Positions 1-60,213 of a DNA stretch of 64,000 nt are shown in pieces; within the stretch, counting starts at the first letter, position 1, and each line of letters begins with the position of its first letter. The DNA is from Vairimorpha necatrix (taxonomy: Eukaryota), in contig CP142729.1 of NCBI GenBank assembly GCA_036630325.1, positions 248,001 through 312,000 on the forward strand, in the 5' to 3' direction. The notes below the pieces were generated by a model. That model was not told the origin of the DNA, did no database searches, and was given only the letters and a program-made list of their open reading frames with translations. The position numbers were made by a program, and so were the translations under genes.

Positions 1-54
1 AACTACAGTCATAATTATTACCTACAGGTTATTTCCATAACTAATTTGGTAGAA

Positions 55-745: not shown

Positions 746-1976
746 AAAATTCATAAAATTTATTTTGAACTTGACGATTCTCTGATTTTTTTACATTTGA
801 TGATCTACCCCAATTCAAAAGCTCAAGATATAAAAATATAAAGAAAAGATGTTTTCGGTAAATTTTACTGAAAACTAGTCTATCTAGAACCTTTTATTTC
901 TCTGAGTTATAATAATTTTCGATAAAATTAACATGTCGTAGAAAGACAGTCTACACTAAATATCTACTCGCCAAACTCAGGACATCTTATTGCTTGTTTT
1001 AAAATTAAAACCTGATGCTAATTAAATGTGTGATATTTCTGAGCTCACACATATATTTACAAAAATGTATTTGACACAATAAAATGCATTAAAGAAAAAA
1101 AAACAATTATTAACAATGCAATAACTACTCTGTTCAATAAGACTAAACTATATAGAAGATGCATATTACATATCCCATACAGAACAAGATGCCAAATCTG
1201 AAATGCGTGATTTTGGGTTGTTTATAGCGTCAAACAGTTTTCTATAAATTACACAATTAAATTGTACCTTTTAAGGACAGGGCTAATTAAGAAATGTGTC
1301 TTATAAAATATTACTACAAAATTTATGTTTATAATCATACCTTTCTTTACTATGACTTTGTAAAATATGCTTTGACAAAGTTTGGCACATTTGTCAATAT
1401 TTAGGTATGAATACAGTATTTCTATCTTGTATATTTTTCTAACCCTGTGATTTTGAATTTAAGGAACGGATATTTGATTTGTAAACATTTTTCAGTTTTA
1501 AAAAGTCACTTATTATTTATCTGATTGAATTGATTCTTATATAAGAAAGCACAAATTTTTTCTTGAATATATCTCAAATGATATTTTTGTTTTAGTAAAT
1601 TTCTATTTGTTTATGCTCATTAAATTTTAAACATCTTTAAATTGCATGTTAAATTTCTTTTTGTTAATTTAAACACTGATCTAGAGTGGCTAGATGGTTT
1701 TCAAGTCTTTTATAAACTTGTCTTTCCCGATATACATCTAAATCTTCTCTCATTGGTCATTCAATTTATTTTCTCATTAAATTGACAATATCTATCTTGG
1801 CCTTGTTTTTTTTATTTTTCTCTACACTCAGTTATATTTTAAATTATAAATATTTCTGTTTTACTAGATTACATTCTACTTCTCTTTCTCATGATATCCT
1901 CTTTGTTTCTTTGTGTTTCATGTTTTTATTTGTCTTTTTTTTTATATTTATTTTTCTTTGATTATTTTTTTATACC

Positions 1977-18615: not shown

Positions 18616-18653
18616 TGTTGGGTTTGGAACCCTTATGAATAAAGAGACTAACA
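18616..18653 (+). repeat. 5' LTR of element 1 (38 bp)
   Basis: TGTTGGGTTTGGAACCCTTATGAATAAAGAGACTAACA followed by TGG (PBS-like). Confidence 0.9.
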
Positions 18654-19552
18654 TGGCAAACACGAGAGTAAATGGGGTAACAAGTGAGACCGTGGTCAAG
18701 TGGCCAGAAATTTGTAAAAAGGGGCGAAAAGAATAGGAGCAATGACGAGAATTGAGGAAGTATCTTTAAAGCAAACATTGAGACATGCAAGTGTCGAACT
18801 GGAGGATCTGATCATAGAGGAAATTTTAGTAAATTTAAATAATTCGAGTGAAATAATTGAGGAAATGGGAAAGTTGGTTAAAAATGAAGAAGAAAGAATT
18901 GGAAGAGTTAGTCGAAGGTATTAAAGAAAACTTAAGAAATGAGATCAAAGGGGAGCTAGTAAGAAGAATAGCAATACCAGGAAAACATTATCAATGTAAA
19001 AGAAGAGAAGATACGTTTCGTATTTGGAAAAGTAGGACATATAGCTAGAAGCTGTATTAAATATATAGAAAAACATAAAGAAGAAGATGTGAATAGAAAT
19101 TTTAAGTTTTTTGGTATTTATTATAATAATAAGTCAAATAAGAAGAATTTTTTGAAGAAAAACGATTATAAATTAATATTACCATCCGTGGATGGAAGAG
19201 AAAATACAAGAAGAGGCTCGGACAGGAAATATATGAGTAGCAATTCTACTGATAATAGTAACAAGAAGTTTAATTATGGAAGCAAGACAAATAAGTTCGT
19301 GGTTGAGGAGTGAAAAAATTTTTGATTATAATATTAAAAGAGATAAAAAGGGCTTACAATTAGAGGAAGTTGTAGATCAGTTTGCAGTTGTATTAAAACC
19401 ATCATAATAGAAGATAACGTTTGGAACTATAGTAAAAAGTTTTATAAGGACACTTAAAGGTGCTAAGGTCGTGAGAAGAAGTCAAATAATTCCTCGGAGT
19501 GCAAAAAAAGAGATGAGGAGATACTTTCAGAAAAAATTATAGGCGTGATAAG

Positions 19553-19821
19553 TGTCATGTCCTCAAAACCATGACATCTGTGTTTTACTGTGTTAAAACT
19601 TTAATCAGTAAAACACTGCCCCGAACGAATAGTCTAAGGCGGTGATCTCTAACGATCGGACATGAAACGTTATGTTTCATAAATAAATATAAATAGTCCA
19701 AAAAGTTAGAAGACACCGAGCATGAAGAGTAACTTTAATAACAAATCAAATAAAAAGAAATATAATACAAATATTTTAGAAATGTATTTAAAAAACGGAG
19801 ATATTACTCCAGTTCATGTCA
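19553..19821 (+). repeat. 5' LTR of nested element (269 bp)
   Basis: Direct repeat of 22154..22422 with 2 mismatches seen. Confidence 0.95.
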
Positions 19822-21148
19822 TTTTGAATTCAAAGACATTAAATGAACAAAACAAAAAACGAAATAACGAAGATGACTATATACAAGTCAAAATCAAAGT
19901 TCCAGACTCGGACCTGGAATTTACGAAGAAATTAAAAATAATAAAAAACATCGAAGAATTCGATTTCATTCCTTGGTTTAAGGAATTTGAAGAAATAGCC
20001 ACACAGAACAAATGGAATGCTGAACAAGGCATCATGATACTACGAAATCTAATTACTGATCGACGCCTAGAAGCGGATATTTTCATTACAGATGCAGCAA
20101 CAACCAAAAGAAACTTAATTAAACATATTTTTGAGCAAGATGCTAAAGAAATGTTGCAAGAAGCCTTTAAGGTAAAACAAATAGATTTTCTTTTTATAGA
20201 AAACTATTATGAAAAGATTTACAACAAGATAAGTATCTATAGCGCTTATTACGAAATAAGCAAATCGGAATTTAACAGACATTTAAGCGAATGCTTTTAT
20301 CAAGGGTTAGGAAGAAACTCTACGTTTGAAATAATAAAACATAACTTAGGCGAGAACGTCTTAAATGCTTATAATCACCTAAAAAATATTGAGAAAATGA
20401 TTCGAAAGAAAGCAGAAACTAAGAAAATAAACAAGGTGTCTAATGACGAGCCAGTATATCAAGAAAGAGAAGGATCATACAGTAAAAAGTTTTCAAACAA
20501 GACGAATAACCCAAGATCTTCGTATATAAATAAATGGTGTTCTATACACAAAAACACTAGCCACGACACCAAAGACTGTTATTACAATAAAGACCGACAA
20601 AATGAAAATAAGAAGAAAGAAACAAGAGAAAATCTTAAGATAATCAAAGAACCAATAAAAGTAATAAATGGAATTGAATTAGAAGGTTCAATTGAAAAGA
20701 AAGAAACCAGATTTTTAATCGATACAGGTGCCACAAGAAATTTTATTAGTAATAAAAAGATCAAAGAATTGAAATTATCACCCATTGAAGATGTGGAAAT
20801 CCAAAAAAATTTGCCAATGAGCAAAAAGAAATAACTAACAAAACAGTACTTGTTAGAATAACATTAAAGAATCTAATGAAAGAAAAATACGTAAGATTTT
20901 ATATATTAAAAAACAACAGCGATGATGTAATATTAGGAAATGAATTCCTAGTCGCAAATGAAGTAGTAGTAAATTACAAAGAAGGAACAATTTATGTAGG
21001 AAGGGAGAGATTGAAATTTCTACATAACGACGAATGTTGCGAATTAGACGCAATGTTATTTGAGAAAAATAATGTAGCCCACCTTTTGTCAAGATGCTAT
21101 CGTATTAGTGAGACCGACCTGTTAGAACAGGAAATGAAAACAAGGTAG
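19722..21148 (+). pseudogene. Gag + aspartic protease of nested element (frameshift in A-run near 20805)
   Basis: WFKEFEEIATQNKWN (Gag), CSIHKNTSHDTKDC knuckle variant, FLIDTGATRNFIS protease active site, then DVILGNEFL in the next frame. Confidence 0.85.
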
Positions 21149-21225
21149 ATGAATGTGCATTAAAAACAGAAAATAAAAAGAACTTTAAAAAAGATGAAAA
21201 AGAAAGAATTTATATTGACAGAAAA

Positions 21226-22143
21226 ATGACTAAAGAATTTATTAAATTTGTCCACGAATTGTCGGGACATTGCGGGCAAGTAATCATGTATTTAAACTTA
21301 AAAAGATGGTACAACATCATAAACATTAGAACAGTGATCCGCAAGATATGCAATCAGTGTATCGTATGTAAAGAAAACAAGGATTTTAAACAACAGAATC
21401 TAGAAAGAAATAAAATAGATAGCAGTGCACCATTTGAAATAATAAGCACAGATATTTTTGGTCCTTTTCTCCTGGAGGAGTTTGAGGGCGACTCTCTAAA
21501 CCATAAGGGTTATATCTTGACCATAACCGATGTGTTTTCGAGATTCACGAGAATTTGGTTTGGTGAGAAGTTTAGGAGTGAGGAAGTTATTATGTGTTTA
21601 AACGAATGGAGTGATGATTTTGCGAAGCCTAAAGCGCTAATTTCGGACAATGGTCCGCAATATAAAAGTAAAAAAATGAAAGATTATACTAATAAAATAC
21701 AAATCGAACATCGGCTAATACCGATATATTACCCTCAAAGCAATGGAATTTCAGAACGTATAAATCAAACAATTGCAGAAGTGCTGAGAATGAATATAGG
21801 AAAGAATATAAAACACATTATTATGCAAATTGAACATCGGATAAATAATAATGTTAATACCACACTGGGAATTGCGCCTAGAGAAGCAATTTATAAGAAT
21901 AGTTTTTATGACATTGAGAAAAGGGTTAATGTGCCATTTTTGCGAAACATACCTGCAGTTGAAGTGAACTATAAGCGACGTATCGCAGTAAATGACATTG
22001 TATACTTAAAAAATTATAGCAATAATAAACTCGAGCGGAAATACTATGGGCCGTTTAAAGTTATGGAAATCGGTAAGAAAGGAAGTTGGGTTCGACTTAA
22101 AGACATGCCCAACTGGGTTCATATTAAACAGTTGAAGCTGTAG
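21226..22143 (+). CDS. Retroviral-type integrase of nested element
   Basis: HELSGH..CNQCIVC zinc motif, STDIFGP, ISDNGPQY, SNGISER, YGPF (GPY/F) motif. Confidence 0.9.
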   Translation: MTKEFIKFVHELSGHCGQVIMYLNLKRWYNIINIRTVIRKICNQCIVCKENKDFKQQNLERNKIDSSAPFEIISTDIFGPFLLEEFEGDSLNHKGYILTITDVFSRFTRIWFGEKFRSEEVIMCLNEWSDDFAKPKALISDNGPQYKSKKMKDYTNKIQIEHRLIPIYYPQSNGISERINQTIAEVLRMNIGKNIKHIIMQIEHRINNNVNTTLGIAPREAIYKNSFYDIEKRVNVPFLRNIPAVEVNYKRRIAVNDIVYLKNYSNNKLERKYYGPFKVMEIGKKGSWVRLKDMPNWVHIKQLKL

Positions 22144-22153
22144 GGGGGCAGAC

Positions 22154-22422
22154 TGTCATGTCCTCAAAACCATGACATCTGTGTTTTACTGTGTTAAAAC
22201 TTTAATCAGTAAAACACTGCCCCGAACGAATAGTCTAAGGCGGTGATCTCTAACGATCGGACATGAAACGTTATGTTTCATAAATAAATATAAATAGTCC
22301 AAAAAGTTAGAAGACACCGAGCATGAAGAGTAACTTTAATAACAAATCAAATAAAAAGAAATATAATACAAATATTTTAGAATTGTATTTAAAAAACGGA
22401 GATATTACTCCGGTTCATGTCA
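22154..22422 (+). repeat. 3' LTR of nested element (269 bp)
   Basis: Direct repeat of 19553..19821. Confidence 0.95.
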
Positions 22423-24647
22423 ATAAGGAACGAATTCTGATTGGAGGAGTCCGATACGAGCGATTGAGAAGCCTAATGGTGGCGGGACGAATTGTGAGTA
22501 ATTTTATGGGGTTGAATGATTTGATTGAAAAAGGCCCTTATGCGTTACTTACAATAAGATACATTTAAGCAACTCAAGGATCCTCGGTATTTAGTGTGAT
22601 TGATCTTGAAGAAGGGTTCTTCCACATAGCAATTGAAGAGAAACACAGATATAAAACAGCGTTTGAATTTGATGGGAATGTGTACGAGTGGAACAGCATG
22701 GTGATGGAATCTAAGAACGCACCACAGATAATGCAGAAAACAATGAATGGGATTTTAAAGAATTTTAAAGGAAAGGGTGTAAAGGTGTATTTAGACGATA
22801 TAGTTATTCACGCTAAAGATGGCATGCGACACGACGAGTTATTTTTGGGTGTAATGAAAAGTTTCCAAACGCACGTCTCAAGATTAATCTTAAAAAGATA
22901 CAATATAGGAAAGGAGAAGTTTATTTATTGTGAGTGTCAGCCGATGGTAGTAATAAAAAGCCATCAGAAATAACAAGAAATGAAGCGTTAGAATATAAGC
23001 GGAAGGAGTGCGTGAGGAAATTGCGGAGATTTTTGGGTTTGGCGATTGGTTTAGAGAATTTATTAAGAATTTTGCGACAATAACATTAAACCTATTTGAG
23101 GCTTTAAAAACTAGCAGAAAATGGAAGAAGAATACATTTTAATTCAACAAGAGTTAAGCAATTTCAGCTAATAAAGATACCAGACTATATGTTTTGAATT
23201 TAGGTTACGTACAAATGCGTCGGATACGAGGCTTGGAGCAGTCCTTTTACCAAGAATAAAGAAGGGATCTGGATACCTATACAATGGGCCTCAAAAAAAA
23301 TTGACACCAACGGAGAGAAGATATGCTATTTTGAAAAGGAGATGTTAGCGGTTGTATGGGGCATAGAAAAGTTTTTTTACGAGTTGAGAGGAAGGAAATT
23401 TGAGTTAATGATGGACCATAAAGCCTTTGGAGAGCTTAGAAACAACCCCTTCTTTAATTTTAAAGAGTAGATTGGTGGATTATTATAATACAGGAGTATG
23501 ACTTCAACGTGCAATATGTAAAGGTGAATTAATGGCAGATGCGGATGCTTTAAGTAGACAAAATCAAGATGATAAAAATAAAAATGAATCTTTAATATAG
23601 AAAAAAGTTTCTGCACAAATGAAGGGAAAAATTGAAAAACACACAGTGATCAGAGACAAAAAGGAGCATTGGGAATTTGATAATGGAGTACAAAGGGAAA
23701 TCCCAAAATTGAAGAGAGATCAAAAATTGTAAAGGACATACATGAGGGGTTAAACCATAGAGGGGTAAAAGTGACATATTTTGAACTAAAGAAACATTAT
23801 TATTAGCCGAAAATAAAAGATCAGGTAATGTGAAAAAAGAGCATGCTAGATGTGTCAGATAGGTAATAGGAAGAATAAGGATGGTGTTGATTATGTTACA
23901 TCAAGTTATAAAGGCGAGAAATTTGCAATTAATGTCATGGAGATTGGTGATCCTCGAAAGTTGGCTTTAATGGGAATTGACTATTTTACTCGATATTTGT
24001 ATGCTAGTGTTAATAAAATAAAAGTACAAATATGATTTTTGGTGTTTTAATGGATTAGTCTAAAATAGGAGATATCCCCGGATGATTATAAGCGATAACG
24101 CCAAAGAGTTAGTAGGAGAAGACTTTAGGAAGTGGTGTTTCATAAACAAGATTGAGCATAGGAAAGTTAGCGTAGAAACCCACAGAAGCAACGGCCGGAT
24201 AGAAAGGGTGGTAAGAACGATACGTGGAAGCGTATTTAAGCAGCGTATGGTTGATTCTGAAGCTGCAGTGAATAAGACAACGGTGATGTACATTAGGACG
24301 GATCATAGCGGACTTAAGTGTACCCCCTTGGAGGCTGTTAACGTAAGAAATAAACATGTAGAGGCAAAATGGGAAAACTCGGGAGATGAAGAATATGCCA
24401 AGAAATTTATCAAAAGGGCGAGAGAAAAGTTTTCGGCGGGCCAGGCTGTAAGAATTGCGAAAGAGAGAAAATCTTGGTAATGTTAGCAAACAGGATAGTG
24501 GTAGATTCGACAGAAAAGGCGATCAGCTTGAAAGTTGTGGGGAAGATTCTTATCTAGTAAAAACTGAGGATGATAAAATTATCAAAAAGAGACATTATGA
24601 TCTTAAAGGAATTATGGAAAGTAAGACTAACCGTCTCGAGGATAAGA

Positions 24648-24685
24648 TGTTGGGGTTGGAACCCTCATGAATAAAGAGACTAACA
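24648..24685 (+). repeat. 3' LTR of element 1 (38 bp)
   Basis: TGTTGGGGTTGGAACCCTCATGAATAAAGAGACTAACA; 2 differences from the 5' copy; preceded by a decayed purine tract. Confidence 0.9.
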
Positions 24686-42528: not shown

Positions 42529-45173
42529 ATTTTTATGAAATGTTATTTTTTTAATATTTTAAAATTTTTATAAAAACATTTTATTAGTTCGATATTTAGT
42601 GTTGCTGTGTATTATTCGGATTTTTTGTGTAGTAAAGAATTTAAAATTAACTGAATATTATGTTATGTTCATAAGTCGTATATAGTTATTTATAATCCAA
42701 ATGAATTACATCTACCAATATCAAATTAAATTTAAACTTGTAAATAGCACACCAAGATCCAAGTACTAAAAAAAAGTATGATTTATAATTGTCTTGGGAA
42801 AACTGATTATTATGAATTGCATTTGGCAATTAGACTATGTATTGCTATTAGTTCGATTATACGATTTACCTCAGTTATACATAAATTTCTCTGTCTAAAT
42901 CATAACAATTTTTACTGCTTTAAATTCTATGTCTTTTTATGAGCAAAAAATTGAATATGTTAAACAGACAACTTGTTTTTTTGTTAGCCATTTATATTGT
43001 GAATTTGATTTATTTCGAATTCAAATTTATAGATCTTATCTAAAACTAATTTTCTAATTTCTAATAGTTCCTATTATCTCGATATAAGGTCATTGTTGTG
43101 TTTTTATGTTTCTATTGTTTGTGCAGCGTCAAAACTCACCCTACAAATTCGTACAATAATTATGAGTGCATTACTTTGTCAATTCAATATCTAGTTTATT
43201 CCGTGCTAATATAGAAGTAATAAAACTGTCTTAGTACGAATTTATGCGTAAATCAATATAATTAAACATTCTTTTCAAATATTTTTAGAAAACAATTGCG
43301 AAATGAATATTTTTAAGTTATTGAAAAGATTCTTTAAAGTATATTTTGACAATACAAAACATACATAAAGAAAAAGGCTCGTTTTTATCTTCTTTTTTTT
43401 TCATAATTAAAAATTCAAATCTTTTTTTACATAACAATAGTTAGATTTTTTCAGTTCTTAATTTATCTCCCAATTCAAGATGAACTGAAGGTTTTATCAG
43501 AAGCTAGTCTAGTTTGGTGCCTTTTTTGCATGCATATTTAAATTGTGTAATTTATAGTTCTTTTATTTTTTCGGCCACAGCTGCGTAATATTCATGACGA
43601 TTCATTCAATTTATTTCTCATGATTTTACATATATCATGTCCAAAGTTTCGCTTTAGATTTTTTTCATGTACTCAACAATTTTAATTATAAAAAAATTGT
43701 AATACTTGTAAAATAGGTTTTCGTGTTGTCGATTATTTATGTAAATAGAACTCTTTTTGTATGTTGAGATGTTAAAATCCAGTCACTCTTTCTTGATGAG
43801 TTTTTATGTGGTTTCCGGGGGTAGATATCTAAAATAATGCTTAAATGCTTTTTTGAGTACAGATATGTGATGTATGTTCTAATTATAATATACATTATAG
43901 CTATTATCTTCCGATTTTATGGTTTACATAATATAAGTTCAATATTAATACATAAATATCTTAATACACAATGACAAAATCATTATCTAAATTTCTTTAT
44001 TATACTGTATTAATTTCTAAAATCTTCAAATTAGTATTTGATATCAACGTAAAAAACACCATTTGCTTGTATACTTATATTTTTTAGAATAATTACATTT
44101 TTTGATTCCATAAAATTTATATGTCTGTTTTCGCTATTTCCCTGTCCATTCAAGAACAAATATATAATTTTATATAAATATTATCTAAATCATATAATTC
44201 ATTTGCAAAAAAAATTTAAATGTGGTTAAGTGTATAATGTTTTTTGTTCTTGATTTTTTATGCACCGTAAAAAATAATTAATTTTAATATAATAACTTTG
44301 TTATATAAGTTTTTCCTTATATAACTAATACTTAAAAATCATATTTAAAAAACTGTACTTAGAATGTTTAAGCAATATACCTGAAATCAATATGAAATTT
44401 ATCATTATTTTTAAAGTTAAATCTGGAAATAAATATATTAGCCTTTTTAACTTATACTTACACCATAAAATCTCTTCATAACCGAAGAAAATTATAAATA
44501 TGAGCTTATTGTCGGATTTGAATAATTAGACCAAATTAGAAAGCTTCATAACATTACGATTGATCTTCATTTGTATTTACAGATTATATAATTAATTTAT
44601 CCAACAATAGCTCTTTTAAGTAACAAACATGTAAAGATAAATTTTATTTTGAGTTATAAGACGTATAACTTAATTTATCTAAATTTAAGCTATATTTTAT
44701 ATTCTATTTGTTGAATTAAAAATTCAAAAATATTTGAGGTTTTTGTTACAAAGTGCATTAAACATACGTCTCTTATTTTTATATTTCATCTACTCTTTAG
44801 ATTTATGTGATACTCTAATACAACACGTCATTTTATGCCAAAGCTCCTCCATAAAATATGACTATCTGACTATTTTTTACAAAAAATTTTTACTAATTAT
44901 TTTCATTTACATAAATAATAAACCGTCTCTTTAATTAAATATTTAAAAAAAACATATAACAATTAACGATATTCTATATTCAAGACCTTCTTTAATATTT
45001 AATTAATTTATCATATTTGCAAAATATTGATTTATTTATAGCGTTTAAAAAAAGAATTATATATACATTTTTGGTGCCAAAGCTTATTATTTAGTCTTCT
45101 TTATTTTATTAAAAATTAAATTAACTAATGTGACGTTACGAAAAACTACAAAAGGCTTTTTGATTTTACCCCA

Positions 45174-45719
45174 ATGAACGTTTTAATTTATTTATGTCTT
45201 CTAAATTGTACCAATGATACGTGTCTCGATAGATTAAACAACATTAGAAAGGATATAGCTAATATTTTTATGAAAGACGATCCTGTGTTTGTATTAAACA
45301 AGTTGTTAATCGAAAAATATCGTACTAAACAAAAAACTCCAAGAATTGCAGATTATACTAAAGATGAGTTTGATTTACGAAATAGTAGCTTTCAGAGAGA
45401 ATGGGAGATGAGATTTGATGCTGAAGTTAAAATATTTTTAGCAGATGAAGAAAAGGGATTTCTTAATGCAAAGGATGATAATATATTATCTGGTTTAAAG
45501 TTCGAAATTGACATGTTAAAAGAAAGGAAATTTGAATCAGTAGAAAATTTAGAGCGTGAATATGATTTAGCAGATATTATACTATCCCATATGCGACGTT
45601 ATGAACAGAAGGTGGACGACGATTTGAATTGTTTTGAGTTAAAAGTTTATATACTTCAAAAAAATCTACATTATGAAAAGCAATTATCTAAAGGTAGGTT
45701 TCATAGCTGTTATATTTAA
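45174..45719 (+). CDS. Small secreted-type protein (family D)
   Basis: CCCCA-ATG; IRKDIANIFMKDDPVFVLNKLLIEKYRT...FQREWEMRF. Confidence 0.85.
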   Translation: MNVLIYLCLLNCTNDTCLDRLNNIRKDIANIFMKDDPVFVLNKLLIEKYRTKQKTPRIADYTKDEFDLRNSSFQREWEMRFDAEVKIFLADEEKGFLNAKDDNILSGLKFEIDMLKERKFESVENLEREYDLADIILSHMRRYEQKVDDDLNCFELKVYILQKNLHYEKQLSKGRFHSCYI

Positions 45720-47265
45720 AAATAAATCTTAATATCGTATGATTTCTTTTATTTGTAGATAAATATCTTTTTATTCATATTTAGTCAATGTCGTTAATTT
45801 AATTTTTGTTTTTTAGGCGTTTAAATTTAGTGTAAATGGTGGATAAATAAGTCATTGTTGTAGGATAGAGATTATCAGAATATGTAACATCCCTAACCAA
45901 GGCGGCTAGTCTAATACACCTCATTCCTAAGCAGATTTTATAAGTCATGATGCCTCATTATACAGTCCATTATATAATTATTAATTTTTTCTTTTTAGCT
46001 TTGTTTCACGAAAGTAGAAGTGTCCAGAAAGAATTGAACGAAAAAATTTACAAATGAATAAATGGTCTTATAAATTTATAATTGGTTAATTACTATGGAA
46101 ACATTATTTTAAATTTTTATAATTATACATTGATCTAAGGTAGTGATTTATTATAGACTAAAATACCAAATGTCTCTTAATATTTTTTATTCTTTTTTTC
46201 AGCACATATGAGGTTGTCATTATTACTAAGTTTCAATCTGTTTTTATTGTTAAAGACAGATTCTAGTCTTGGTCGTTATTGTTTAAAGTATATATTTATA
46301 TATTAATTTGGTCTTTTTAGTACTTCAATGATTTATATAGACAAAATATAAGGATACTACATATTTATGCTCTTTAAAGCATTCTTAAATCAAAATATTC
46401 ATCAATTATATGAGATATGTAATATTTTCAATTCAAAGTTTAATAAAACTATTTATACGATTGATTAATTCATAAAAAATATCTTTTATTACAATATAAA
46501 TTCCTTATATAAAATGGCTTATAAGTATATTTATCAAAACTCATCTATATAAAATAAGTAAAAGAAAGAAATATTTGACAATTTCGAAAATGAATTAATG
46601 GGGCTTATATTATTTATTCTTTTTTAAAACTTTATTTTTTTGTTTACGTTCCTTATTATTAATTCCGTTTCGATAAGAAAAGAAAGGTTTAATAGAAAAT
46701 TCTGAAAATTATGGTTAAGTGAGCTAAAGTGGAAACTCTCTAACACTTTTTATTTTGTTTTATGTATTAAAACATTTTAAAAGTCTCTAAATTCTGATAA
46801 TTGTTAAATTTCAAAATTTCTTGTAAAGTAAATATTTATTGCATCACATTGAAGTTACAATATAAATAGATAATAAATTGATTGTGATATGTGTAAACTA
46901 TGTTTCTTATTCGAAAAAAGCCTATTTCCAAAAATTGTTTCTTTTGTATTTATATAACATTTTACGAACCCTGGAAATCTTTACTAATTCTTTTCATTAC
47001 TCTTAATTGAAATTCGATTTTTAAGTAAAATAAGAGATAAAGTTATATAAAACTATAATAAATGGTCAAAACTTATATTTTAACTAATCAAATCAATATT
47101 AATTTATCAAAAATTACTAATTATTTGAAATTTCTTACGCTTACCATAATATTATATGTTTCTTATAAATTAATATGCGATTGATATTTTCTAATTGTTT
47201 AATTATAATTTATTTTTGTACGTGTTGGAAAAAAAATTAAAAAAAACGCATGGGCTTCCCCCTTT

Positions 47266-47793
47266 ATGAACATTTTATTTTATTTATGTGTTATTTTTTT
47301 GTCTTCTAACAAAAATATTAACAGATTGAACTGTATTAGAGAAGATATAGCTGATATTTTTTTTAAAGACGATCCTGTGTCTGTATTAAACAAGTTGTTA
47401 GTTGAAAAGTATCGTACTAAACAAAATACTCCTAAAATAGAGGATTTCACTGAAGATAAATATAATTTGCAAAATAGCGTTTTTCAAAGAGAATGGGAAT
47501 TGAGATTCGATCACGAAGTTAAAAAATTTTTAGATAAGGAAGAAGAAAATTTTATATGTACAAAAAACAATATTATACTTTTTCACATGAAAACTGCGAT
47601 TAACAAGTCAAAATTTCTAAACTTTGAAAAAGAACAAATTAAAAAACTTGAGTACACTTTGGCAGATACTATACTTGTAAAAGTCTTGCATTATGAAGAA
47701 GATGTTGATGACATGTTAAAATGTTTTAGAAGAGCAATCAGTAAGATCCAAGAAAATCTATATATTAAAAAGCAATTACTTGAAGTAAGATAG
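47266..47793 (+). CDS. Small secreted-type protein (family D)
   Basis: CCCCCTTT-ATG; IREDIADIFFKDDPVSVLNKLLVEKYRT...FQREWELRF. Confidence 0.85.
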   Translation: MNILFYLCVIFLSSNKNINRLNCIREDIADIFFKDDPVSVLNKLLVEKYRTKQNTPKIEDFTEDKYNLQNSVFQREWELRFDHEVKKFLDKEEENFICTKNNIILFHMKTAINKSKFLNFEKEQIKKLEYTLADTILVKVLHYEEDVDDMLKCFRRAISKIQENLYIKKQLLEVR

Positions 47794-48467: not shown

Positions 48468-49398
48468 AAGATTTATTGAGTTAATTTTCAATTATGTTTA
48501 GATATTCATAGCACAGCTTTCCCCGGTATCGCTCATGGGATTCAGCTCTTCACAGACTTTGGTTTCTGTGGAATTATTAATGTTTTCCAACTTCACTTTA
48601 GCAGCTTCATTCCCCTTTGCCGACACCACTTCTTTAACAGTCGCCATATTCGCTAGTGCGCTTACAGCTCTAGCCACTTCTTCTTCTCCTGCATCCTCCT
48701 GATCGTATCCTCGTCGTCGTTCCAAAGAGATGGACTCTAGAGTCTTCTTCATCACAATAGACTGGATATATGCTTCCAGGTAGGGTTGGATTTCTAGCTC
48801 CCTGATGTACTTTCTGTGATATTTGGTCACCACTCCATCCCATGTCATTACATAAGGAACTATTCTTGTCCGGGATTTATGTATTAGTCCCAGTTCATTT
48901 GCAAGAAGGTCATATTTTCTTAGTTTTTCATTCTCAACTATAGTAAGTCGATCCTGGTTGGTTATACCAACTTCAACTATTAAAATTTCTTTCTTCTTCT
49001 TGTCAAACACAAGAATATCAGGCTTATTATGGGTTACCTTTATATTAGTGGATATTCTCGTATCTACTCTTATTTCTGCACGATCATTTTCCATGATCTC
49101 TTGTACTGAGTGTCCACGTATTTTCTTTGTCTTCTTAAACCCATATTTAATACATAGTAAGAGATGAATGCATCTAACTACCTCGTTGTGTCTTTTCATA
49201 TAATCAAAACCCAACATTCGATCACACTTGGTAGCTAAATGATCCACGGTCTTCCTATGAGATCCACAATGGGGACATTGTCCCTCTTGTCCACAGAAGA
49301 TATTTCTATCCTGTAGGAAGCAGTAAATTGCTTCGGATCTAGCCTGATTGTTTCCTTTAACCAGCCAGGTAGAAGAGTCCCTAATGCTTACTAAGTCA
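48468..49398 (-). mobile_element. 5'-truncated RLE-type (R4/Dong-like) non-LTR retrotransposon with ~15-bp TSD
   Basis: Open frame SSTWLVKG..LQDRN..CPHCGSHRKTVDHLATKC (CCHC)..RHN..KPDILVFD..IVEVGIT..KLRKY (restriction-like endonuclease). Flanked by TTACTGAAAATATAA at 48453..48467 and 49399..49413. Confidence 0.9.
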
Positions 49399-50920
49399 TT
49401 ACTGAAAATATAATATATAAATATAAATAAAAAAATAAATAATTGTCCTAATTCACTGCCTTAAAATTTTGCAAAAGATCTTTAATGATCTTCTAACCAT
49501 ATATATAAATATATATATATCTATTTTGCCTATACTACTAAAAAAATAACTCCTATTAACATCATACAGTTTTCACAGTGATATCTTTTTAAATTTTGAA
49601 AAAAAAATTTATTCAAATAAGATTGGTTTATTATATATTGCTTGTAATAAATACAAAAATGGTGATCATTATTTTTAAAAGATAAAAAAGGGATACATAT
49701 TTAACTAGCATTTTATGTAATTCTAACCTTAAATTTTTAAAATATATCATATGGTCTTGTATATGACAGAAAAAAATCTTATTAATATCATTTAAGTGTG
49801 GTATCAACTTTATTGTCAATATTTGTTTAATTTATAAAGTGATATGTTTGGCGGAAAATTCTCATAATCCTTAGTTTCTAAAAATAGTACATAAACTTAT
49901 CAACTACCAATGTCCAAATGAGTCAATTCAAGCTAAAAACCATGTTTTTTCTCTTTGTAGAAATAAGTAAGCGTAATTCCTCTACTTGAGTTTTTAGAAA
50001 AAAACCATTACATTACTTATATATAACGTATAAGAGACAAAAAAGGTAGTATTTCCGGAATAGCATAATTAATAAAGTATGAAATGGTATTTTTATCTAT
50101 ATTACACTTATCCACTCGTAAAAAATACTCTTTATCCTTCGAATAATATTAGTTGTCAAAACCGCCAAAATAGAAAGATTAAGATTGTTTTGTATGTTCA
50201 CTTTCTCATATAAATTGTAATTAGATGTAATAATGTATTACATGTATAGAGATATGACAAATAAATAACCAACAAAATTGCTAGTCCTACAAGAGATTAT
50301 ATTTAGTTCAAAAGCTAACATTGGTATTTTGAACTCGGTTCTATCGTCTTTATGTCATATCTGTAATCTATCACAAAAATATAGATCAAAATTGTTACAA
50401 AAAATCCGAAAAGTCTAGTATTGTTATGGAATAACCAAAATAATTAGAAAATAAATAGATTTCGTTAATAACTATTTGCCTATATGATGAATGCTTAGAA
50501 ATTCAAAACATCCAGGGCTACCTGAGTTCTTTTTGCTCTATATAAGATCTGGAAATTTAATAGTATAGTTGAACCTTAATAAACATGACTAAAATAAAAT
50601 TAAGAAATTTTTTCTTAGAAGGCCGAATTTTTACGGTTAATTACGTTGTTTTTTTTAGATGGAAAATCTAAAAAAAGCATCTAATTCTAAAACAGTTATA
50701 ACGATCCTATTGATATTATTGTATATTACTTTGTGGTCCCCTCTAGTGAGGGCAAAACAAAAATATTGCTCCAACGGGGAGCGAATGCAAATTTGTTTTT
50801 TAAATGATTTATTAATGGTGGAACTAATCTTTGTGGTACTAATGTTGCCTTTATTGTTGTAAAAATTATTCTTGTTCATTTCTATTTTTGTCGTACCTTT
50901 TTTTAATATTTTTTATTTTT

Positions 50921-50958
50921 TGTTAACCATTTATTTATTAAGGGTTCTAAACCCTACA
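50921..50958 (-). repeat. 3' LTR of element 2 (38 bp)
   Basis: Minus strand TGTAGGGTTTAGAACCCTTAATAAATAAATGGTTAACA directly after the PPT. Confidence 0.95.
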
Positions 50959-53947
50959 TCCCCCCTCCAGACGGGTAGTCTCTCCATCTTCTAAACAACT
51001 CTTCCTTATCTCTTTCAAATCATAATGCCTCTTTTTAACAATTTTACCATCCAGTAGTCTCACAATATATGAATCATTTTCACTTATAGCTACGATCCTT
51101 CCGCGACCCGTGAATCTTCCCTTGTCTGTTTTCGCACGTGTACCTAAATTTTCTCTCCTAGCGATTCTTACCTCTTGGCCTACTGTAAATGTCTCTCTGT
51201 GTCTTCTCTTGAACCGACCAGCATATTTTCCATTTTCATCATTTTCAATTATAACTTCAGCAGTTTGATCTCTCCACGCTTCCATCGGCGTACATTTTAT
51301 TGCTGTATGTAGTGTATTATTATATCCTTTGATTGCTCTTTCTATCTTTTCAGAAATATTCCCATCATTTTGCTTTATCAATGTCTCTCTTATAGTTCTG
51401 ATGCATCTCTCGATTATACCATTACTCCTATGAGCTTCTAAGCCCACTTTCCTATGTTTAATATCATTAATACTACACCATTCTTTAAATCTATTACTTA
51501 CAAACTCTTTTCCGTTGTCTGTCACATATTCCTCTGGAAATCCATCTTCCCTTATCCACTTTTGTAATACCTCTATAACTTCACTACTCTCTTTACATCT
51601 CAAATTCGAACCCCACAACCTTCTAGTAAAGTAATCAATACCCAGTAACACATACCTATTCTCTCCACCTATGTCCATTAAATCCAACGCCACTTTCTCC
51701 AATTTCTTTCTAGTTACTACGAAATCACATCCTCCTGTGTTTTTCCTATTGTTAATCCCACATATTTCACAATTCTTAATTACCTTATTAATATGATCTT
51801 TCATACCAGGCCAATACCATCTTTGTTTAATGTTATAATAAGTGCCTTTGACACCTCTATGGTTTAACTCCTCATGTACTCTTGTTATTTCATGTTCTCT
51901 ACTATCTAGGCTCAATATCTCTTTCACCTCACCTGTGGAAAATTCCCATTACTGTTTACCGTCCTTTTCTTTAATATGTTTCTGCTTTTTTCCCAAAATT
52001 TGTTTTTCGATCACTTCTTTTCTCTTGTTGTCCTTTTCTTTTTGTTCATCCGAAACTTCTACCTGATCATACTGCCTGCTTAACGCATCTGCATCTGTCA
52101 TCAACTCCCCTTTCACATACTCTATTGTAAAGTCAAACTCTTGTATCTGTTCTACCCATCTGTTTATTCTGTTATTATTGAAGTATGGCTTATTTCTGAT
52201 CTCTGCTAATGCTTTATGATCCGTCATCAAATGAAATTTCCTTCCTCTAAAATCACTTTCAAACTTCTTTATTCCAAAAAACACCGCCAACATCTCTTTC
52301 TCACTTATCGTATATCTTCGCTCGGTAGGAGTCAACATTTTCGATGCCCATTGTATCGGAATCCACTCACCCTCTTTATTTTCTTGTAATAGAATTGCTC
52401 CGATCCCCGTATCACACGCATCAGTTCTTACTCTAAATAGCTTTTTTCCGTCCGGAATCTTCAACTTTTTCATATCTCTCAAGCCTTGCTTCATATCCTC
52501 AAGGCTCTTTCCATATCCTCCGTCCAATTCCACTTAACATCTTTCTTTAAAGCCTCAGTAAGCCTTACTGTTCTATACGCATAGTTGGGAATAAAGTCTC
52601 TAAACCAACCAGTTAGTCCTAAAAATCTTCTTAACTCTCTAACATTCTCAGGTTTTCTATATTCCAATGTCTCCTGCTTTTTAATCTCATTCGGTCCCAT
52701 GACCTCCCTATTAATTGTTACTCCCAGCAACATCACCTCATCTTTTTTGTATTGTATCTTTGTTTGGTTTATTCTCAACCCACACTCTTTAAACTTTTTA
52801 ATTACCCTCTCTAGTAACTCGTCATGCACTCTTACGTCTTTACCATGAATAACTATATCATCCATATATACTTCCACGCCTTTACCTCTGAATTCATCTA
52901 AAACTCTGTTCATTACTCTCTGCATTATATGAGGCGAATTCTTAAACCCCATAACCATACTATTCCATTCGTATACTCGACCATTCACTTCAAATGCTGT
53001 TTTGTGCTTATGGTGCTCCTCAATCTCAATATGATAAAATCCTTCTTTTAAGTCGATAACCGTAAATACTTTTGACCCCTGTGTGGCTCTCATAATATCC
53101 TTAATTAACGGTAGTGAGTACGGGTCCTTGTCAACCAAATCGTTTAACGCCATCAAATTGCTTACCAATCTTACGTCCCCATTTGGTTTTTCAAGTGCTC
53201 TTATTGGACTCCTCCACTCACTTTTGGAACGTCTTATAACCCCTCTATTTTCCAACTTATTCAAGTACTCCTCAAATTTCACCCTAAGGTAGTATGGCAC
53301 ATTCTGCCCTCTTTTCACAACCTTTTCACCTTGCTTAGTATTTATTGGACACTTCTCTCCTGTGAGATATTTTATCTTTTCTTCTGATTCTTTAAAAACT
53401 TCCGGATACTTTTCAATTAAATTTTCTAACTTATTTACTGTTTTACATCTTTTCCCTTCATTGTTGATAATTGGTTCTTTCTGTAAAACTTGTTCCTTTT
53501 TAATTTTATATTTTTCCCTACCAGCTACACTTTCATGACATTCTCTAGCGTAATGCCCTTCTTTCTTACATATAAAACATTTTGTAGTTTCTCTGATTTC
53601 TCTTCTTTTCCTATACATCCTAAGATTTTCTTTTCTTTCTTCCCTAAACTCTTTCAACACTTTATCCATAATCTCTTTAATCATTTCTTGTCTTTCTTCT
53701 GACTCTCTCTCAAATTCTGCTCCTTTTTGTAAGCCTTTATAAATTTCCTCCCAACTGCTCCTTCCGTCACAAAAATTTTCAAAAATATAATCCTGCAAGT
53801 TCGCAGATGCCAAATCCATAACATCTTTCCACTCAACTTTCAATATTAACTTTAGTCTCTTATCTATCCTAATTGCCTCTTTCTCTAATGTTCTAGCCTC
53901 TTGACTACGGGACTCTCTTGTTTCCCTGTTCATCCTTGTGTTCGCCA

Positions 53948-53985
53948 TGTTAACCATTTATTTATTAAGGGTTCTAAACCCTACA
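53948..53985 (-). repeat. 5' LTR of element 2 (38 bp)
   Basis: Identical to 50921..50958; followed by TGGCG. Confidence 0.95.
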
Positions 53986-56145: not shown

Positions 56146-56348
56146 GAGGCTGTTAGTTCTCTTTAGCCTTTTAAACTACGGATTATAAGTATTTTAATCA
56201 TATTCTACATTTAAACAGTTAGGCATTTAGTTTTTAATAAATCTTCAATTAAATAAATTAAATTTTGGCTTAAAGAATTTTTTAAAAATATATTTACTTT
56301 AATAATTCATTACAGAAACAGAAATTATATTTGGGAGCCTTTAATTAA

Positions 56349-56397
56349 TATAAGTGCTTAACATAATTGGGGTTTAATATTATTACTGATTATAACA
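56349..56397 (-). repeat. 3' LTR of element 3 (49 bp)
   Basis: Minus strand TGTTATAATCAGTAATAATATTAAACCCCAATTATGTTAAGCACTTATA. Confidence 0.95.
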
Positions 56398-56413
56398 TCC
56401 CCCCTCCAGACGG

Positions 56414-59400
56414 TTAGTCTCCTTCAACATACTTTAAATCCCCTACACCCTTAAGATCATAATGCCTTTTTTTCACCAACCTTCCATTCTCTAATCTCAC
56501 TATATATGAATCCCCTGGACATAGCTCAATCACTCTTCCCATGTCTAAAAATCGACCCTTACTATACTTACTACATCCCTTTAAATTCTCATTCTTGGCA
56601 ACCCTAACTATCTGGTTCCTTTTGAACTTTTCTCTAAACCAACTTTTAAACTGTTGCGCATACTTTCCCTCTGGACTATTCTCCATACTAACATTTCCTG
56701 TATTATCGGTTAAAGCTTCTACTGGCGTGCACTTAATACCAGCATGAAAACTTAAATTATATTTCTCAATAGCTTCATAAACCTTGTTCTCGAATTTTTC
56801 TTTTTGGCTCTTTAAAATACTATCTCTTACAGTTCTAATAACTCTTTCTACTCTTCCATTACTTCTGTGCGACTCAACGCTGACCTTTCTATGACTAATA
56901 TCCAAATTTCTACATAGCTCGGTAACTTTTTCGTTGCAAAACTCTTTACCATTATCCGTAATGATTTCCTCTGGTTTTCTACCCTGTTTACACAAATCCT
57001 TGATAAATTCGGCAATTCCAGATGCGTGCTTGCTCTTCAATACTCTGCCCCATAATCTCCTTGTAAAGTAATCAACTGCCAAAACAATAAACGCTTTCTC
57101 ATCCCTAAATTCTATTAAATCTAAGCCAACCTTCTCTAAATATCTTGTCGTGTTCACTAAATCAGTACCGCCACTCGTTTTTCTATTAAAAATCTGACAA
57201 GTCTCGCAATTCTTAAGGACCTTTTCGATCTGATCCTTAATTCCTGGCCAATAATACTGTTTCCTCAACTCATAATATACCGTTGTTCTGCTTCTGTGGC
57301 TCAAATTTACATGACAATCCATTATTAATCTCTCTCTGTCTTGTTCCAAAGGCATCTCGCCTTCTCTACCACTATCAAATACCCAGTATTCTTTACCTTC
57401 TACAATTTTTACATGCTTATTTCTTTTCCCTTCTTTTTGTCTATCACGGCGTGTTTCATTTCTCTTTTTCTTTGCATCTTTTTCTTTTGTATATACCCTA
57501 CTTAGCGCATCGGCTACGACCATATTTTCTGGAGTTCTATACTCTATCACGAAATCAAATTCCTGAATCTTCTCGACCCATCTATTAATTCTAGCATTCT
57601 TAAAGTCGGGCTTGTTTCTTATTTCGCCCAACGCTTTATGATCAGTTTCTATTCTAAATTTCCTACCTCTTAATTCATATTCAAACTTTTTAACGCCCCA
57701 AAAAACTGCGTACATTTCTTTTTCTGATATACCATAATTAACTTCCGTAACGGTAAACTTCTTAGACGCCCACTGTACTGGCACCCATTCTCCTTGATTA
57801 TTTTTCTGTAACAGTACTGCGCCCATGCCTACATTACTAGCGTCAGTCCTCAACAAAAATTCTTTATCATAGTCTGCTATTTTCAGCTTTCCTAGGCCTT
57901 TCAATACTTCTTTTAAATTATTAAACTCGTTTTTCATATCATCCGTCCACTTCCAATTATCATTCTTCCCTTTTAAACTATCTGTCAACCTAACTGTCAA
58001 TCCAGCGTAATTCTTAATAAAATCTCTGAACCAACCCGTCATTCCTAAAAATCTTCTTACATCTGACACGCATGTTGGTATCGGAAACTCTAGGGCTTCA
58101 TTTTTCTTTATCTCTGACGGTATTATATCTTCTCCATTTAAAGTGACTCCCAATAATTTAACTTCCCGTTGACAAAACTGAACTTTATTTGCATTCAGCT
58201 TCAAATTGTTTTCCTTCAGTCTATTTAATACCCTTTTCACTAATTGCTCGTGTTCTCCTATCGTTCGGCTGTACAACACAATATCGTCCATATACACCTC
58301 TACTCCTTTGCCTTTCATATCTCTAAAAATCCTATCCATAATTCTCTGCAATATCTGCGGGCTATTCTTATATCCCATAACCATAGAGTTCCATTCATAA
58401 ACCTTGCCATTAAAATCAAACGCCGTCTTATGTTTATCCTCCTCCTCTATCTCAATACTATAGAAGGCCTCTTTTAAGTCGAAAACCGTCATATATTTTG
58501 CACCTTGTGTAGCTCTTACAACATCTCTTATGTTAGACAATCTATACTCGTCCTTTTGTACAATATCGTTCAATGCCATCAAATTACTAACCAGTCTTAT
58601 CTCACCATTTGGCTTTCTGATCGACCTTATAGGATTCCTCCAACTTGAATTTGACTCTCTTATCACTTTCCTTTTTAATAAATCTTCTAGATGTAGCTCT
58701 GTATCTTTTATCAACGCCTGCGGAACCATTTGTCCCTTTTTAAATACCTTCATACCCGCTTCAGTATTAATTTTACATTTTTCCAGTTTACAATATTTTA
58801 TCTCCTCTTTTCCTAACTTAAAAACCTCTCCAAAACTCTTAGCATACTTATCTAAATTTAATCTGATTCTCTTACTCTCCTCTTTAACGGCATATTCTTT
58901 TTGATTTTTCTCAAATTTGACTCTAAGTCCTCTTTTTGATCTTCTAAAATCTCGCTCCTGACTTGACTCTGATTCACTACCTACTTCCATTTTGCAACTG
59001 TTATCCTTGTTATTCTTTTTATAATAATTATCTCTATTAATCTTCAGTCTGCATTCAAACACCCTATGCCCTTGTCTATCACAATAGAAGCATCTCGGTA
59101 CTCTCGATTTTTGTCTTGGTTGTTCTCTACTAATTTCTTCATTTATAGTCCTAGAAATAATTTTTCTCATTTCCTCATATATCTTTTCTTTTTCCTCTAC
59201 TTCCTTAATCCTTAACAATAGCTTCTTCCTTATTCCTTCAATATTTTCTTCCTTTTTGATATTTCTCACAATAAAATCTTTTAAATCCATCGAAGCCAAC
59301 TTGAACAGCTCACTCTTCCATTTCACTCTATCTACATCTCTCAAATCCAATTCATACAATATACGCTCTAACTCCTGTAACATCTTTCTGACCACTTGGC

Positions 59401-59458
59401 CACAGTCCTCTCTTGTGAACTCTTCTTTAGGTATCGCCCCCATATAAGTGCTTAACAT
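56414..59458 (-). CDS. Single Gag-RT-RNaseH-integrase polyprotein (1014 aa), no recognisable protease
   Basis: CFYCDRQGHRVFEC knuckle; FDLKEAFY, MVMGYKNSP, VYMDDIV (RT); RTDAS..GAVLLQ, ETDHKAL, VADALSR (RNase H); H..LSH..CETC, ITDNG, SNGRVER (integrase). Confidence 0.95.
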   Translation of the reverse strand: MLSTYMGAIPKEEFTREDCGQVVRKMLQELERILYELDLRDVDRVKWKSELFKLASMDLKDFIVRNIKKEENIEGIRKKLLLRIKEVEEKEKIYEEMRKIISRTINEEISREQPRQKSRVPRCFYCDRQGHRVFECRLKINRDNYYKKNNKDNSCKMEVGSESESSQERDFRRSKRGLRVKFEKNQKEYAVKEESKRIRLNLDKYAKSFGEVFKLGKEEIKYCKLEKCKINTEAGMKVFKKGQMVPQALIKDTELHLEDLLKRKVIRESNSSWRNPIRSIRKPNGEIRLVSNLMALNDIVQKDEYRLSNIRDVVRATQGAKYMTVFDLKEAFYSIEIEEEDKHKTAFDFNGKVYEWNSMVMGYKNSPQILQRIMDRIFRDMKGKGVEVYMDDIVLYSRTIGEHEQLVKRVLNRLKENNLKLNANKVQFCQREVKLLGVTLNGEDIIPSEIKKNEALEFPIPTCVSDVRRFLGMTGWFRDFIKNYAGLTVRLTDSLKGKNDNWKWTDDMKNEFNNLKEVLKGLGKLKIADYDKEFLLRTDASNVGMGAVLLQKNNQGEWVPVQWASKKFTVTEVNYGISEKEMYAVFWGVKKFEYELRGRKFRIETDHKALGEIRNKPDFKNARINRWVEKIQEFDFVIEYRTPENMVVADALSRVYTKEKDAKKKRNETRRDRQKEGKRNKHVKIVEGKEYWVFDSGREGEMPLEQDRERLIMDCHVNLSHRSRTTVYYELRKQYYWPGIKDQIEKVLKNCETCQIFNRKTSGGTDLVNTTRYLEKVGLDLIEFRDEKAFIVLAVDYFTRRLWGRVLKSKHASGIAEFIKDLCKQGRKPEEIITDNGKEFCNEKVTELCRNLDISHRKVSVESHRSNGRVERVIRTVRDSILKSQKEKFENKVYEAIEKYNLSFHAGIKCTPVEALTDNTGNVSMENSPEGKYAQQFKSWFREKFKRNQIVRVAKNENLKGCSKYSKGRFLDMGRVIELCPGDSYIVRLENGRLVKKRHYDLKGVGDLKYVEGD

Positions 59459-59491
59459 AATTGGGGTTTAATATTATTACTGATTATAACA
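59443..59491 (-). repeat. 5' LTR of element 3 (49 bp)
   Basis: Identical to 56349..56397. Confidence 0.95.
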
Positions 59492-59661
59492 ATTAATAAT
59501 AAAAAAGGAATACTAGCAGGAAAATCATATTAATAAATAATTACTATCAGATTACACACGATTTATTTTAACAACCATTTAATTTTTATATTTTTTATTA
59601 AATATTGATTTTACATCAATCAATACTGTTTAAAAAACTAAAAAAAGAATTCTTATCGACT

Positions 59662-60213
59662 ATGAATAATTTATTTTATTTGTGTGCTGTTTTTTTATCT
59701 TCTAAAGGATGTCCGGATCGTATAAATATGATTAGAAAAGACGTAGCTGGTATCTTCATAAAAGACAATCCTAAATCTGTATTAAATAACTTGTTAATCG
59801 AGAAATATCGTACTAGACAATCTGCTCCGAGAATCGAAGATTATACTAAAAAAGAATATAATATTAAAAATAACAGTTTTCAGGTAGAATGGGAATTAAG
59901 ATTTGAAAACGAAGTCAAAAGTTTTTTAGAAAAAGAAAAAGAAAATTTTATTTGTGCAAAAAATGGAAGTATTTTACTAGATTTAAGCAAGAAAATTGAG
60001 ATTTCTAAGGAAAATAACTTTAGCAATTATCAAAATTTAAAACTAGAGTACGAATTGGCAGATCTTATTTTGTGGAGAATAAAGCTATATGAAAAAATTG
60101 TGAAAAGAGAACTGAGGTCGTTTAAAAAAATAGTTTATAATATTCAGGAAAATTTACACAGTGAAAATGAATTACTCAAAACAAAATATTGTGAATGTCA
60201 TGGTTGCGAATAA
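59662..60213 (+). CDS. Small secreted-type protein (family D)
   Basis: Start reassigned to MNNLFYLCAVFLSS; IRKDVAGIFIKDNPKSVLNNLLIEKYRT...FQVEWELRF. Confidence 0.85.
   Translation: MNNLFYLCAVFLSSKGCPDRINMIRKDVAGIFIKDNPKSVLNNLLIEKYRTRQSAPRIEDYTKKEYNIKNNSFQVEWELRFENEVKSFLEKEKENFICAKNGSILLDLSKKIEISKENNFSNYQNLKLEYELADLILWRIKLYEKIVKRELRSFKKIVYNIQENLHSENELLKTKYCECHGCE

Follow-up and report, generated by a model that had tools for sequence, protein, structure and literature searches.

Element 3 and the search for a protease

The window analysed in this study, a 64-kb stretch (64,000 nucleotides) of contig CP142729.1 of Vairimorpha necatrix (positions 248,001 to 312,000), is AT-rich with short genes, and all positions given here are those of the whole window. 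At 56349-59491 lies a long terminal repeat (LTR) retrotransposon, termed element 3, which is delimited by identical 49-bp LTRs and a 5-bp target-site duplication (TSD) and is equipped with a primer-binding site and a polypurine tract (56398..56407); the element and each of its features are on the minus strand. The 5′ LTR (59443..59491; TG...TA) is an AT-rich stretch with a CCC motif at its position 26 and an ATG at 34, and it shows no difference from the 3′ LTR (56349..56397); the TSD, TTAAT, occupies 59492..59496 with its partner at 56344-56348. The LTR terminus is TA, not CA (59443-59444 and all copies of the subfamily), yet the 5-bp TSDs are clean. A single open reading frame (ORF; 56414..59458, 1014 aa from the first ATG, no frameshift) starts at the ATG within the LTR, right after the CCC motif, and runs on in frame through the primer-binding site (59430..59442), a 13-nt complement of the 3′ end of tRNA-Pro(AGG) including its CCA, to which one tRNA-Pro(AGG) gene of the same genome corresponds; the last base of the 5′ LTR is the A of the second in-frame ATG.

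The encoded protein begins with a four-helix lobe (59201..59410) homologous to the first, capsid-fold domain of the two-domain Gags of sister lineages. Helix 4 continues into a long charged extension (59123..59200), likely a coiled coil, that occupies the place of the second Gag domain. A CCHC zinc knuckle follows (59051..59092, residues 123-136; Pfam zf-CCHC weak, E 0.055), and then a charged, poorly ordered linker of 65 aa (58856..59050) in place of the protease, with a basic KRIR patch at its end (58873-58862). The reverse transcriptase (RT; 58139..58855) has its lead-in from residue 202 (58855) and YMDD at 58294, and is succeeded by RNase H (57557..57949, Pfam) and an integrase (56417..57343) comprising HHCC, catalytic core and C-terminal part, with rve and H2C2 domains. 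The first-pass annotation of this DNA, which had described a knuckle after about 120 aa, a charged linker and the RT lead-in, is borne out by these positions. Pfam returned zf-CCHC, RVT_1, RNase H and integrase in the order RT - RNase H - integrase and no protease in element 3, though it detected the protease of another element of the window. The closest named homologues are from Nosema granulosis and Vairimorpha necatrix.

No protease was found by any of the approaches used. A retropepsin profile built from 29 microsporidian retropepsins of relatives gave, over the whole window in six frames, a single match (20670-21019), which belongs to a fourth, RT-less element (19553-22422) and not to element 3 or its two relatives in the window, elements 1 and 2; the earlier claim that all three lack a protease is upheld by the profile. 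Against the six frames of 38 element DNAs (37 and a positive control) the control alone scored, and 52 of the 53 closest database proteins (P0001-P0053, some of them N-terminally cut) gave no match, with scores of at most 0.6 bits, the sole scoring protein, P0049, being itself a training member of the profile. An AlphaFold2 model of the 210 N-terminal residues, made with 36 sequences, has four helices followed by the knuckle and by a linker of low confidence. The predicted fold of the element 3 N-terminus had no retropepsin match in a structure search, in a procedure that found retropepsins at once when run on the sister protein P0123. A cryptic protease within the linker can be set aside, as profile matches are absent and just 2/40 linkers reach 95 aa, neither of which matches; a protease in another frame or on the other strand was likewise not found in the elements or the window. 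The fold check that the first-pass annotation had proposed for the N-terminus revealed no hidden retropepsin.

Copies, relatives and the short Gag

Copies in the genome are young and numerous. Forty-five genome matches were scored, out of 1702 candidates, and 32 of them retain an intact frame of at least 1007 aa. Both LTRs were found in 27 of 30 fetched loci, the pairs being identical in 24/27 and the TSD perfect in 25/27, with 22 distinct TSDs. The 42 genome matches of the element 3 LTR resolve into 16 pairs and 10 singles, and all 16 pairs stand 3092-3094 bp apart, hence the subfamily has no longer master. This also rules out, together with relatives from many sources, an artefact of assembly or deletion. 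A near-identical, complete, protease-bearing partner with shared LTRs, a kind of master that the first-pass annotation had named as evidence against its reading, was not found among the LTR pairs of the genome, and the nearest protease-bearing relative is 41% identical in RT and RNase H (RT-RH). The nearest protease-bearing lineage in the genome has 3 matches, all with stops, and the intact canonical families of the same genome are at 30-32% identity in RT-RH. In sequencing run X1 the depth over the element is about 10 times that of its flanks. A single contig of low depth, which may be from another strain or haplotype, passes from 13 letters of left-flank sequence straight into the right flank and so shows an empty site. 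From the many, intact and young copies, the lineage is still transposing.

Relatives were not found in the viral contigs searched, and atlas matches, with scores under 0.9, serve as leads only. Lineage members do occur in assemblies labelled as bacteria (L065, L068, P0036; Clostridium, Turicibacter), most likely through eukaryotic contamination of bins, and P0303 (309 aa), a short Gag followed by an apparent integrase remnant, is a possible deletion derivative.

Two database searches place the relatives in a graded series. The outgroups have a full Gag, a knuckle and a protease. A compact sister lineage (P0049, P0121-P0132), with a single ORF of about 1100 aa, has a two-domain Gag and a protease and is without knuckle. 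Elements with a two-domain Gag and no protease come from Pseudoloma, Pancytospora and unnamed contigs, and the series ends in the mini-Gag lineage of Nosema, Vairimorpha, Enteropsectra and many 3.0-3.2-kb contigs. Among the protease-less lineages, P0133, P0135, P0137, P0139, P0141 and P0053 have either a second Gag domain without knuckle or a knuckle without second domain. Five of 11 compact sisters carry R, L, A or P for T/S in the catalytic triad (DRG, DLG, DAG, DPG; P0049, P0121, P0127, P0129, P0130), and the alignment of all of them is without the strands that follow the ILG helix in canonical retropepsins. Judged from the changed triads, the protease may already have been in decay ahead of its deletion.

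A fast IQ-TREE phylogeny of RT-RH (65 chosen rows, among them 22 of about 50 mini-Gag members; 427 columns; gypsy-like rows, without Copia or BEL outgroup) supports this order, the protease state of N-terminally cut rows not being readable in it. The lineage of element 3 is nested among protease-bearing gypsy-like relatives. All protease-less rows fall in one clade (SH-aLRT 98.4 / aBayes 1), to which the compact lineage (100/1) is sister, both together reaching 94.5/1; the mini-Gag group has 76.6/0.999, or 93.6/1 when joined by the cut Nematocida protein P0048. The single clade, together with the 52 negative proteins noted above, substantiates the first-pass view of protease loss as a property of the lineage. 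The enzymes of the protease-less elements have been kept under selection: between subfamilies, uncorrected ratios of nonsynonymous to synonymous differences (pN/pS), with synonymous sites near saturation, amount to 0.20-0.37 in the three enzymes (RT, RNase H, integrase) and to 0.44-0.50 in lobe and knuckle, and reach 0.71-1.02 in the linker.

As to the short Gag, the first-domain profile of the sisters' Gag recognized 3/38 N-termini at 17-20 bits (maximum of 760 shuffles, 6.5) and aligned with the profile of the clade at a probability of 62% (E 7.7e-5). The sisters' second-domain profile recognized 0/38 N-termini, with a profile-profile probability of 0.2%. In the P0123 model the first domain of the sisters has fold matches to the capsid lobes of four proteins or elements, PEG10, dArc1, Copia and Ty1 (Z 7.5-9.3); their second domain had no capsid match in the fold search. 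Compared directly, the mini-Gag fold scores Z 4.6-4.9 against Arc lobes, no higher than against unrelated bundles, and fold searches with it returned no specific match, a blank that carries no information. Since the first-domain profile matches the mini-Gag and that domain itself matches capsid lobes, sequence and model together make it most likely that the mini-Gag is a single capsid lobe with coil and knuckle attached. The two-domain capsid that, according to the first-pass annotation, Ty3/Gypsy polyproteins need is missing: the model passes from four helices to the knuckle. We regard it as almost certain that element 3 represents a monophyletic, Ty3/Gypsy-derived microsporidian lineage of about 3.1 kb in which the protease was lost once and the second Gag domain thereafter, and in which transposition by the LTR route has continued, as indicated by tRNA primer, polypurine tract, identical LTRs and 5-bp TSDs.

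Proposed expression and assembly without a protease

The segment right behind the knuckle holds a recurring motif. An N-K pair stands no more than 25 aa from the knuckle in 26/44 proteins (2000 shuffles: mean 15, maximum 24), and Tyr is the fifth residue after the K in 20 of these 26 vs 6 of 175 N-K pairs elsewhere, the residues between being free; five of ten further members have N-K-x4 followed by Y (three times), F or C. At the DNA level, N-K is spelled AATAAA in 10/11 subfamilies with DNA vs 12/28 N-K pairs overall (binomial 0.002 at 0.45, for related rows and a motif found post hoc). Where in-frame A[AT]TAAA hexamers stand no more than 45 nt from the knuckle, the last of them has TA 12 nt on in 7/11 cases vs 0/24 such hexamers in pol, a count that is not independent of the Tyr count. 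Such a hexamer is missing from 2/13 subfamilies, L068 and that of element 3, which at the corresponding place (58994..59041) has in-frame one-mismatch hexamers only, one at 59041-59036 with TAT 12 nt on and another at 59014-59009, then TGC. The decayed copy L064 has a genomic TAG exactly at the place of the Tyr codon, 12 nt past AATAAA, maybe by chance. Taken together, codon spelling and spacing suggest that the AATAAA after the knuckle probably marks an internal poly(A) site, where the added tail would complete a UAA stop and so give a Gag-only mRNA. Leaky recognition of AAUAAA has been reported for the microsporidian Encephalitozoon, and CCC directly ahead of the start codon with 5′ untranslated regions of <7 nt as the promoter type of microsporidia (PMC2803860).

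We propose a mechanism, to which we give close to an even chance, in which the lineage is self-sufficient through an uncut polyprotein and a Gag-only mRNA, cleavage not being needed. The 49-bp LTR would act as a complete microsporidian promoter. Most transcripts would end at the leaky poly(A) signal right behind the knuckle, with RNA cleavage at the TA of the Tyr codon and the tail completing an in-frame UAA, and so would supply an excess of a lobe-coil-knuckle protein of about 145 aa. Read-through transcripts would serve both as genome RNA and as mRNA for the uncut Gag-RT-RNase H-integrase protein, which would join the Gag oligomer via its own lobe and coil, reverse-transcribe, enter the nucleus through the basic patch ahead of RT and integrate as one piece. 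The nuclear import consensus has the form K[KR]x[KR]. Of 40 linkers, 23 have a patch of this kind ahead of RT, compared with 7.5 in shuffles (at most 15; window set post hoc), and the patch is likely an import signal; the linkers measure 25-109 aa with 42% charged residues (P0021 mis-parsed as 4 aa). The wider picture, of an autonomous LTR retrotransposon without protease or closed two-domain capsid that relies on the uncut protein and a one-lobe Gag from an internally polyadenylated mRNA, with a stop codon supplied by the tail, is put forward tentatively, at rather less than an even chance.

Several observations weigh against this proposal. Element 3, though among the youngest subfamilies, lacks the exact hexamer (AAC AAG), three subfamilies have the hexamer without T at +13, and strict N-K-x4-Y is absent from 24/44 proteins. 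A search for Gag-only proteins with their end at the proposed place gave no match among 1757 candidates of 52-329 aa, and among 150 listed profile matches, 12 of which were single-stretch and full-profile, none of the 10 inspected (not P0040, P0047) ends there; the result is weak, as an end of this kind would seldom survive in genes called from short contigs. The RNase H/integrase junction of the clade is charged, with 0.84 hydrophobic residues of 7 (n=44) compared to 2.34 (n=107) in other gypsy-like matches. The protease-bearing sisters share it (0.92, n=12), so that the junction does not cleanly track the loss and supports an uncut protein only weakly. In solved Ty3 and Arc shells it is the second capsid domain that joins capsomers, and a closed particle is doubtful for a single lobe without that linking domain. 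Lastly, the genome offers at least 150 retropepsin matches, many in intact frames of 1250-1340 aa, and N-K-x4-Y also occurs 11-24 residues ahead of the catalytic Asp in the protease-bearing P0136, P0147 and L055.

Because the motif there precedes a protease, N-K-x4-Y is possibly a protein relic or a cleavage site, albeit an RNA signal older than the protease loss agrees better with a codon spelling that is fixed and a distance to the Asp that is not. As a kept cleavage site, it would belong to an alternative in which the polyprotein co-assembles in particles of protease-bearing or RT-less Gag-protease families and receives capsid and protease from them in trans. Potential helpers exist in the abundant retropepsin genes just mentioned, in multi-copy RT-less Gag-protease(-integrase) families, and in protease-bearing relatives from two genera with lineage members, Enteropsectra and Nematocida; the position of N-K-x4-Y at the Gag/protease border of some relatives fits as well. 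However, no LTR, primer site or close Gag was found in common with any helper, the abundant helpers are 30-32% identical in RT-RH and the nearest sister is rare and broken in the genome, all enzymes except the protease are under constraint in at least six microsporidian genera, and a protein site would not be expected to fix the AATAAA spelling. We consider such borrowing unlikely, at an appreciable residual probability.

Less probable still is that the uncut protein acts alone with no Gag excess, binding its own mRNA in cis and forming through lobe and coil a capsid-less ribonucleoprotein, with N-K-x4-Y as a mere extension of the knuckle. The one ORF without frameshift, the loss of half of Gag, the many proteins (element 3 included) without strict motif and the helix that the structure model shows over the post-knuckle segment of element 3 would all agree with it; the AATAAA spelling and the fixed 12-nt spacing with free residues between are left unexplained. 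A host protease that cuts the flexible linkers to free RT and integrase is very improbable. The long, charged and poorly ordered linker speaks for it; against it, linker length is variable with no conserved site besides N-K-x4-Y, and in a search for the Ddi1-type PF09668, which a divergent host gene could escape, no match exceeded 38 bits and most lay at retroelements. Among the three possibilities raised in the first-pass annotation, the evidence speaks for the uncleaved protein and against a host retropepsin, with borrowing in trans in between; a separate Gag-only mRNA was not among them.

To our knowledge, integrase-bearing LTR retroelements are regarded as dependent on protease maturation inside a capsid. 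The importance of element 3 is that an old lineage has dispensed with the protease and with half of its capsid and is still very active, with intermediates remaining in databases, so that the minimum for LTR retrotransposition becomes testable with a single-ORF element of 3.1 kb. If the wider picture is true, it would amount to a minimal LTR replication cycle within 3.1 kb and add a further way of setting the Gag:Pol ratio; a poly(A)-made stop, if real, may also explain the Gag excess of single-ORF microsporidian elements in general. For annotation, elements with LTRs of 38-49 bp are easily filed as broken.

Neighbouring elements and known systems

Element 2 (50921..53985, minus strand) has the same design, with 38-bp LTRs, an RT 59% identical to that of element 3, one frameshift and one stop; 37 copies at ≥98% exist, 15 of them with an open frame of 1003-1011 aa. 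The short gap between its knuckle and LIEKYPEVF, noted in the first-pass annotation, is real; it counts 39 residues, not about 35. Element 1 (18616..24685, plus strand) is a decayed member, also with 38-bp LTRs, and is interrupted by the RT-less Gag-protease-integrase element (19553..22422, plus strand; 280-bp LTRs, TSD ATAAG). The description of these diverged copies as bearing fresh LTR and TSD signatures holds for element 3, but not for element 1, whose LTRs differ at 2/38 bases and whose flanks read TTTTA/TATAA. The LTRs at 53948-53985 and 18616-18653, like those of L017 and L025, have AATAAA close to their end, such that poly(A) addition would land just beyond the 3′ LTR; in the 5′ LTR the same AATAAA is read in frame as N-K.

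The RT-less element (also L039-L041, L046) has at least six near-full genome copies at 96-100%, of which L040 and L041 have a 791-aa frame that is intact, and additional multi-copy Gag-protease elements of 628-651 aa (L031, L032, L036, L037, L042) are without RT and most of the integrase. A two-part system of element 3 and the RT-less element is not supported: the Gag of the latter is about 45-54% identical to L038, from the canonical families, and it has no LTR in common with element 3. Elsewhere in the window, three genes (45129-45719, 47209-47793, 59602-60213) are paralogues of one another, 70-73% alike; their products measure about 200 aa and have a hydrophobic N-terminus, and element 3 is inserted about 170 bp ahead of the likely start of the third. 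A fragment at 48498-49460 (minus strand) resembles the endonuclease end of what we take to be a non-LTR retrotransposon, with a related stretch at 304-649. The G+C-richer segment 61030-61700, without long ORF, is perhaps another element remnant.

Three microsporidian Ty3/gypsy groups with one polyprotein were described by Parisot et al. 2014 (PMC4202319), and the single-polyprotein point was made again later (PMC13174016). An element in the 2014 supplement, Aalg retro L of Anncaliia algerae (Table S1, File S1; 50-bp LTR, ORF 32-3049, 3127 bp; Microsporidia Group 1 region of Fig. S1), shows by eye in its first 600 bases a similar LTR, an ATG-through-primer-site start, a short Gag, a knuckle and AATAAA+12+TAT. 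From this likeness it is very likely a member of the element 3 lineage, unremarked in that supplement, since the paper comments on the single polyprotein only and the word 'protease' appears 0 times in its main text and supplement text. At listing level, in a search without most subscription literature, neither a protease-less LTR lineage nor a post-knuckle signal turned up as the subject of a paper. The Nbr elements of Nosema bombycis, reportedly the subject of Xu et al. 2006, and Repbase entries could bear on novelty.

With canonical Ty3/Gypsy elements (Ty3; the 1250-1340-aa families of the same genome) element 3 shares LTRs, TSD, tRNA primer, polypurine tract, the order RT-RNase H-integrase and, most likely, a capsid-type first lobe. 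It departs from them in its LTRs of 38-49 bp across the lineage, its ORF that starts in the LTR and runs through the primer site, and its lack of a protease and a second Gag domain. Since two defining features fail, the aspartic protease between Gag and RT and the two-domain capsid, the lineage is a derived Ty3/Gypsy variant and not a canonical member. The compact sisters have the homologous first Gag lobe in common with it but keep the second Gag domain and the retropepsin fold, and have no knuckle. DIRS/Ngaro elements combine a gypsy-like RT-RNase H and the absence of a protease with a tyrosine recombinase, separate ORFs and unusual repeats; the element 3 lineage differs from them in its integrase of DDE type, its direct LTRs and its TSDs of 5 bp. 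Non-autonomous TRIM, LARD and deletion derivatives have a near-identical complete partner sharing their LTRs, and their enzymes are lost or decaying, whereas here the LTR pairs are of equal length in 16/16 cases and RT, RNase H and integrase are intact under constraint. The closest parallel to the proposed mechanism is the short-Gag RNA of the plant Ty1/Copia element EVD, a single-ORF element in which Gag excess arises from prematurely terminated, Gag-only RNA (PMC5580714). Copia, as described there, ties the short-Gag RNA to splicing and keeps its protease, whereas in the element 3 lineage splicing would not be needed and the tail itself would give the stop.

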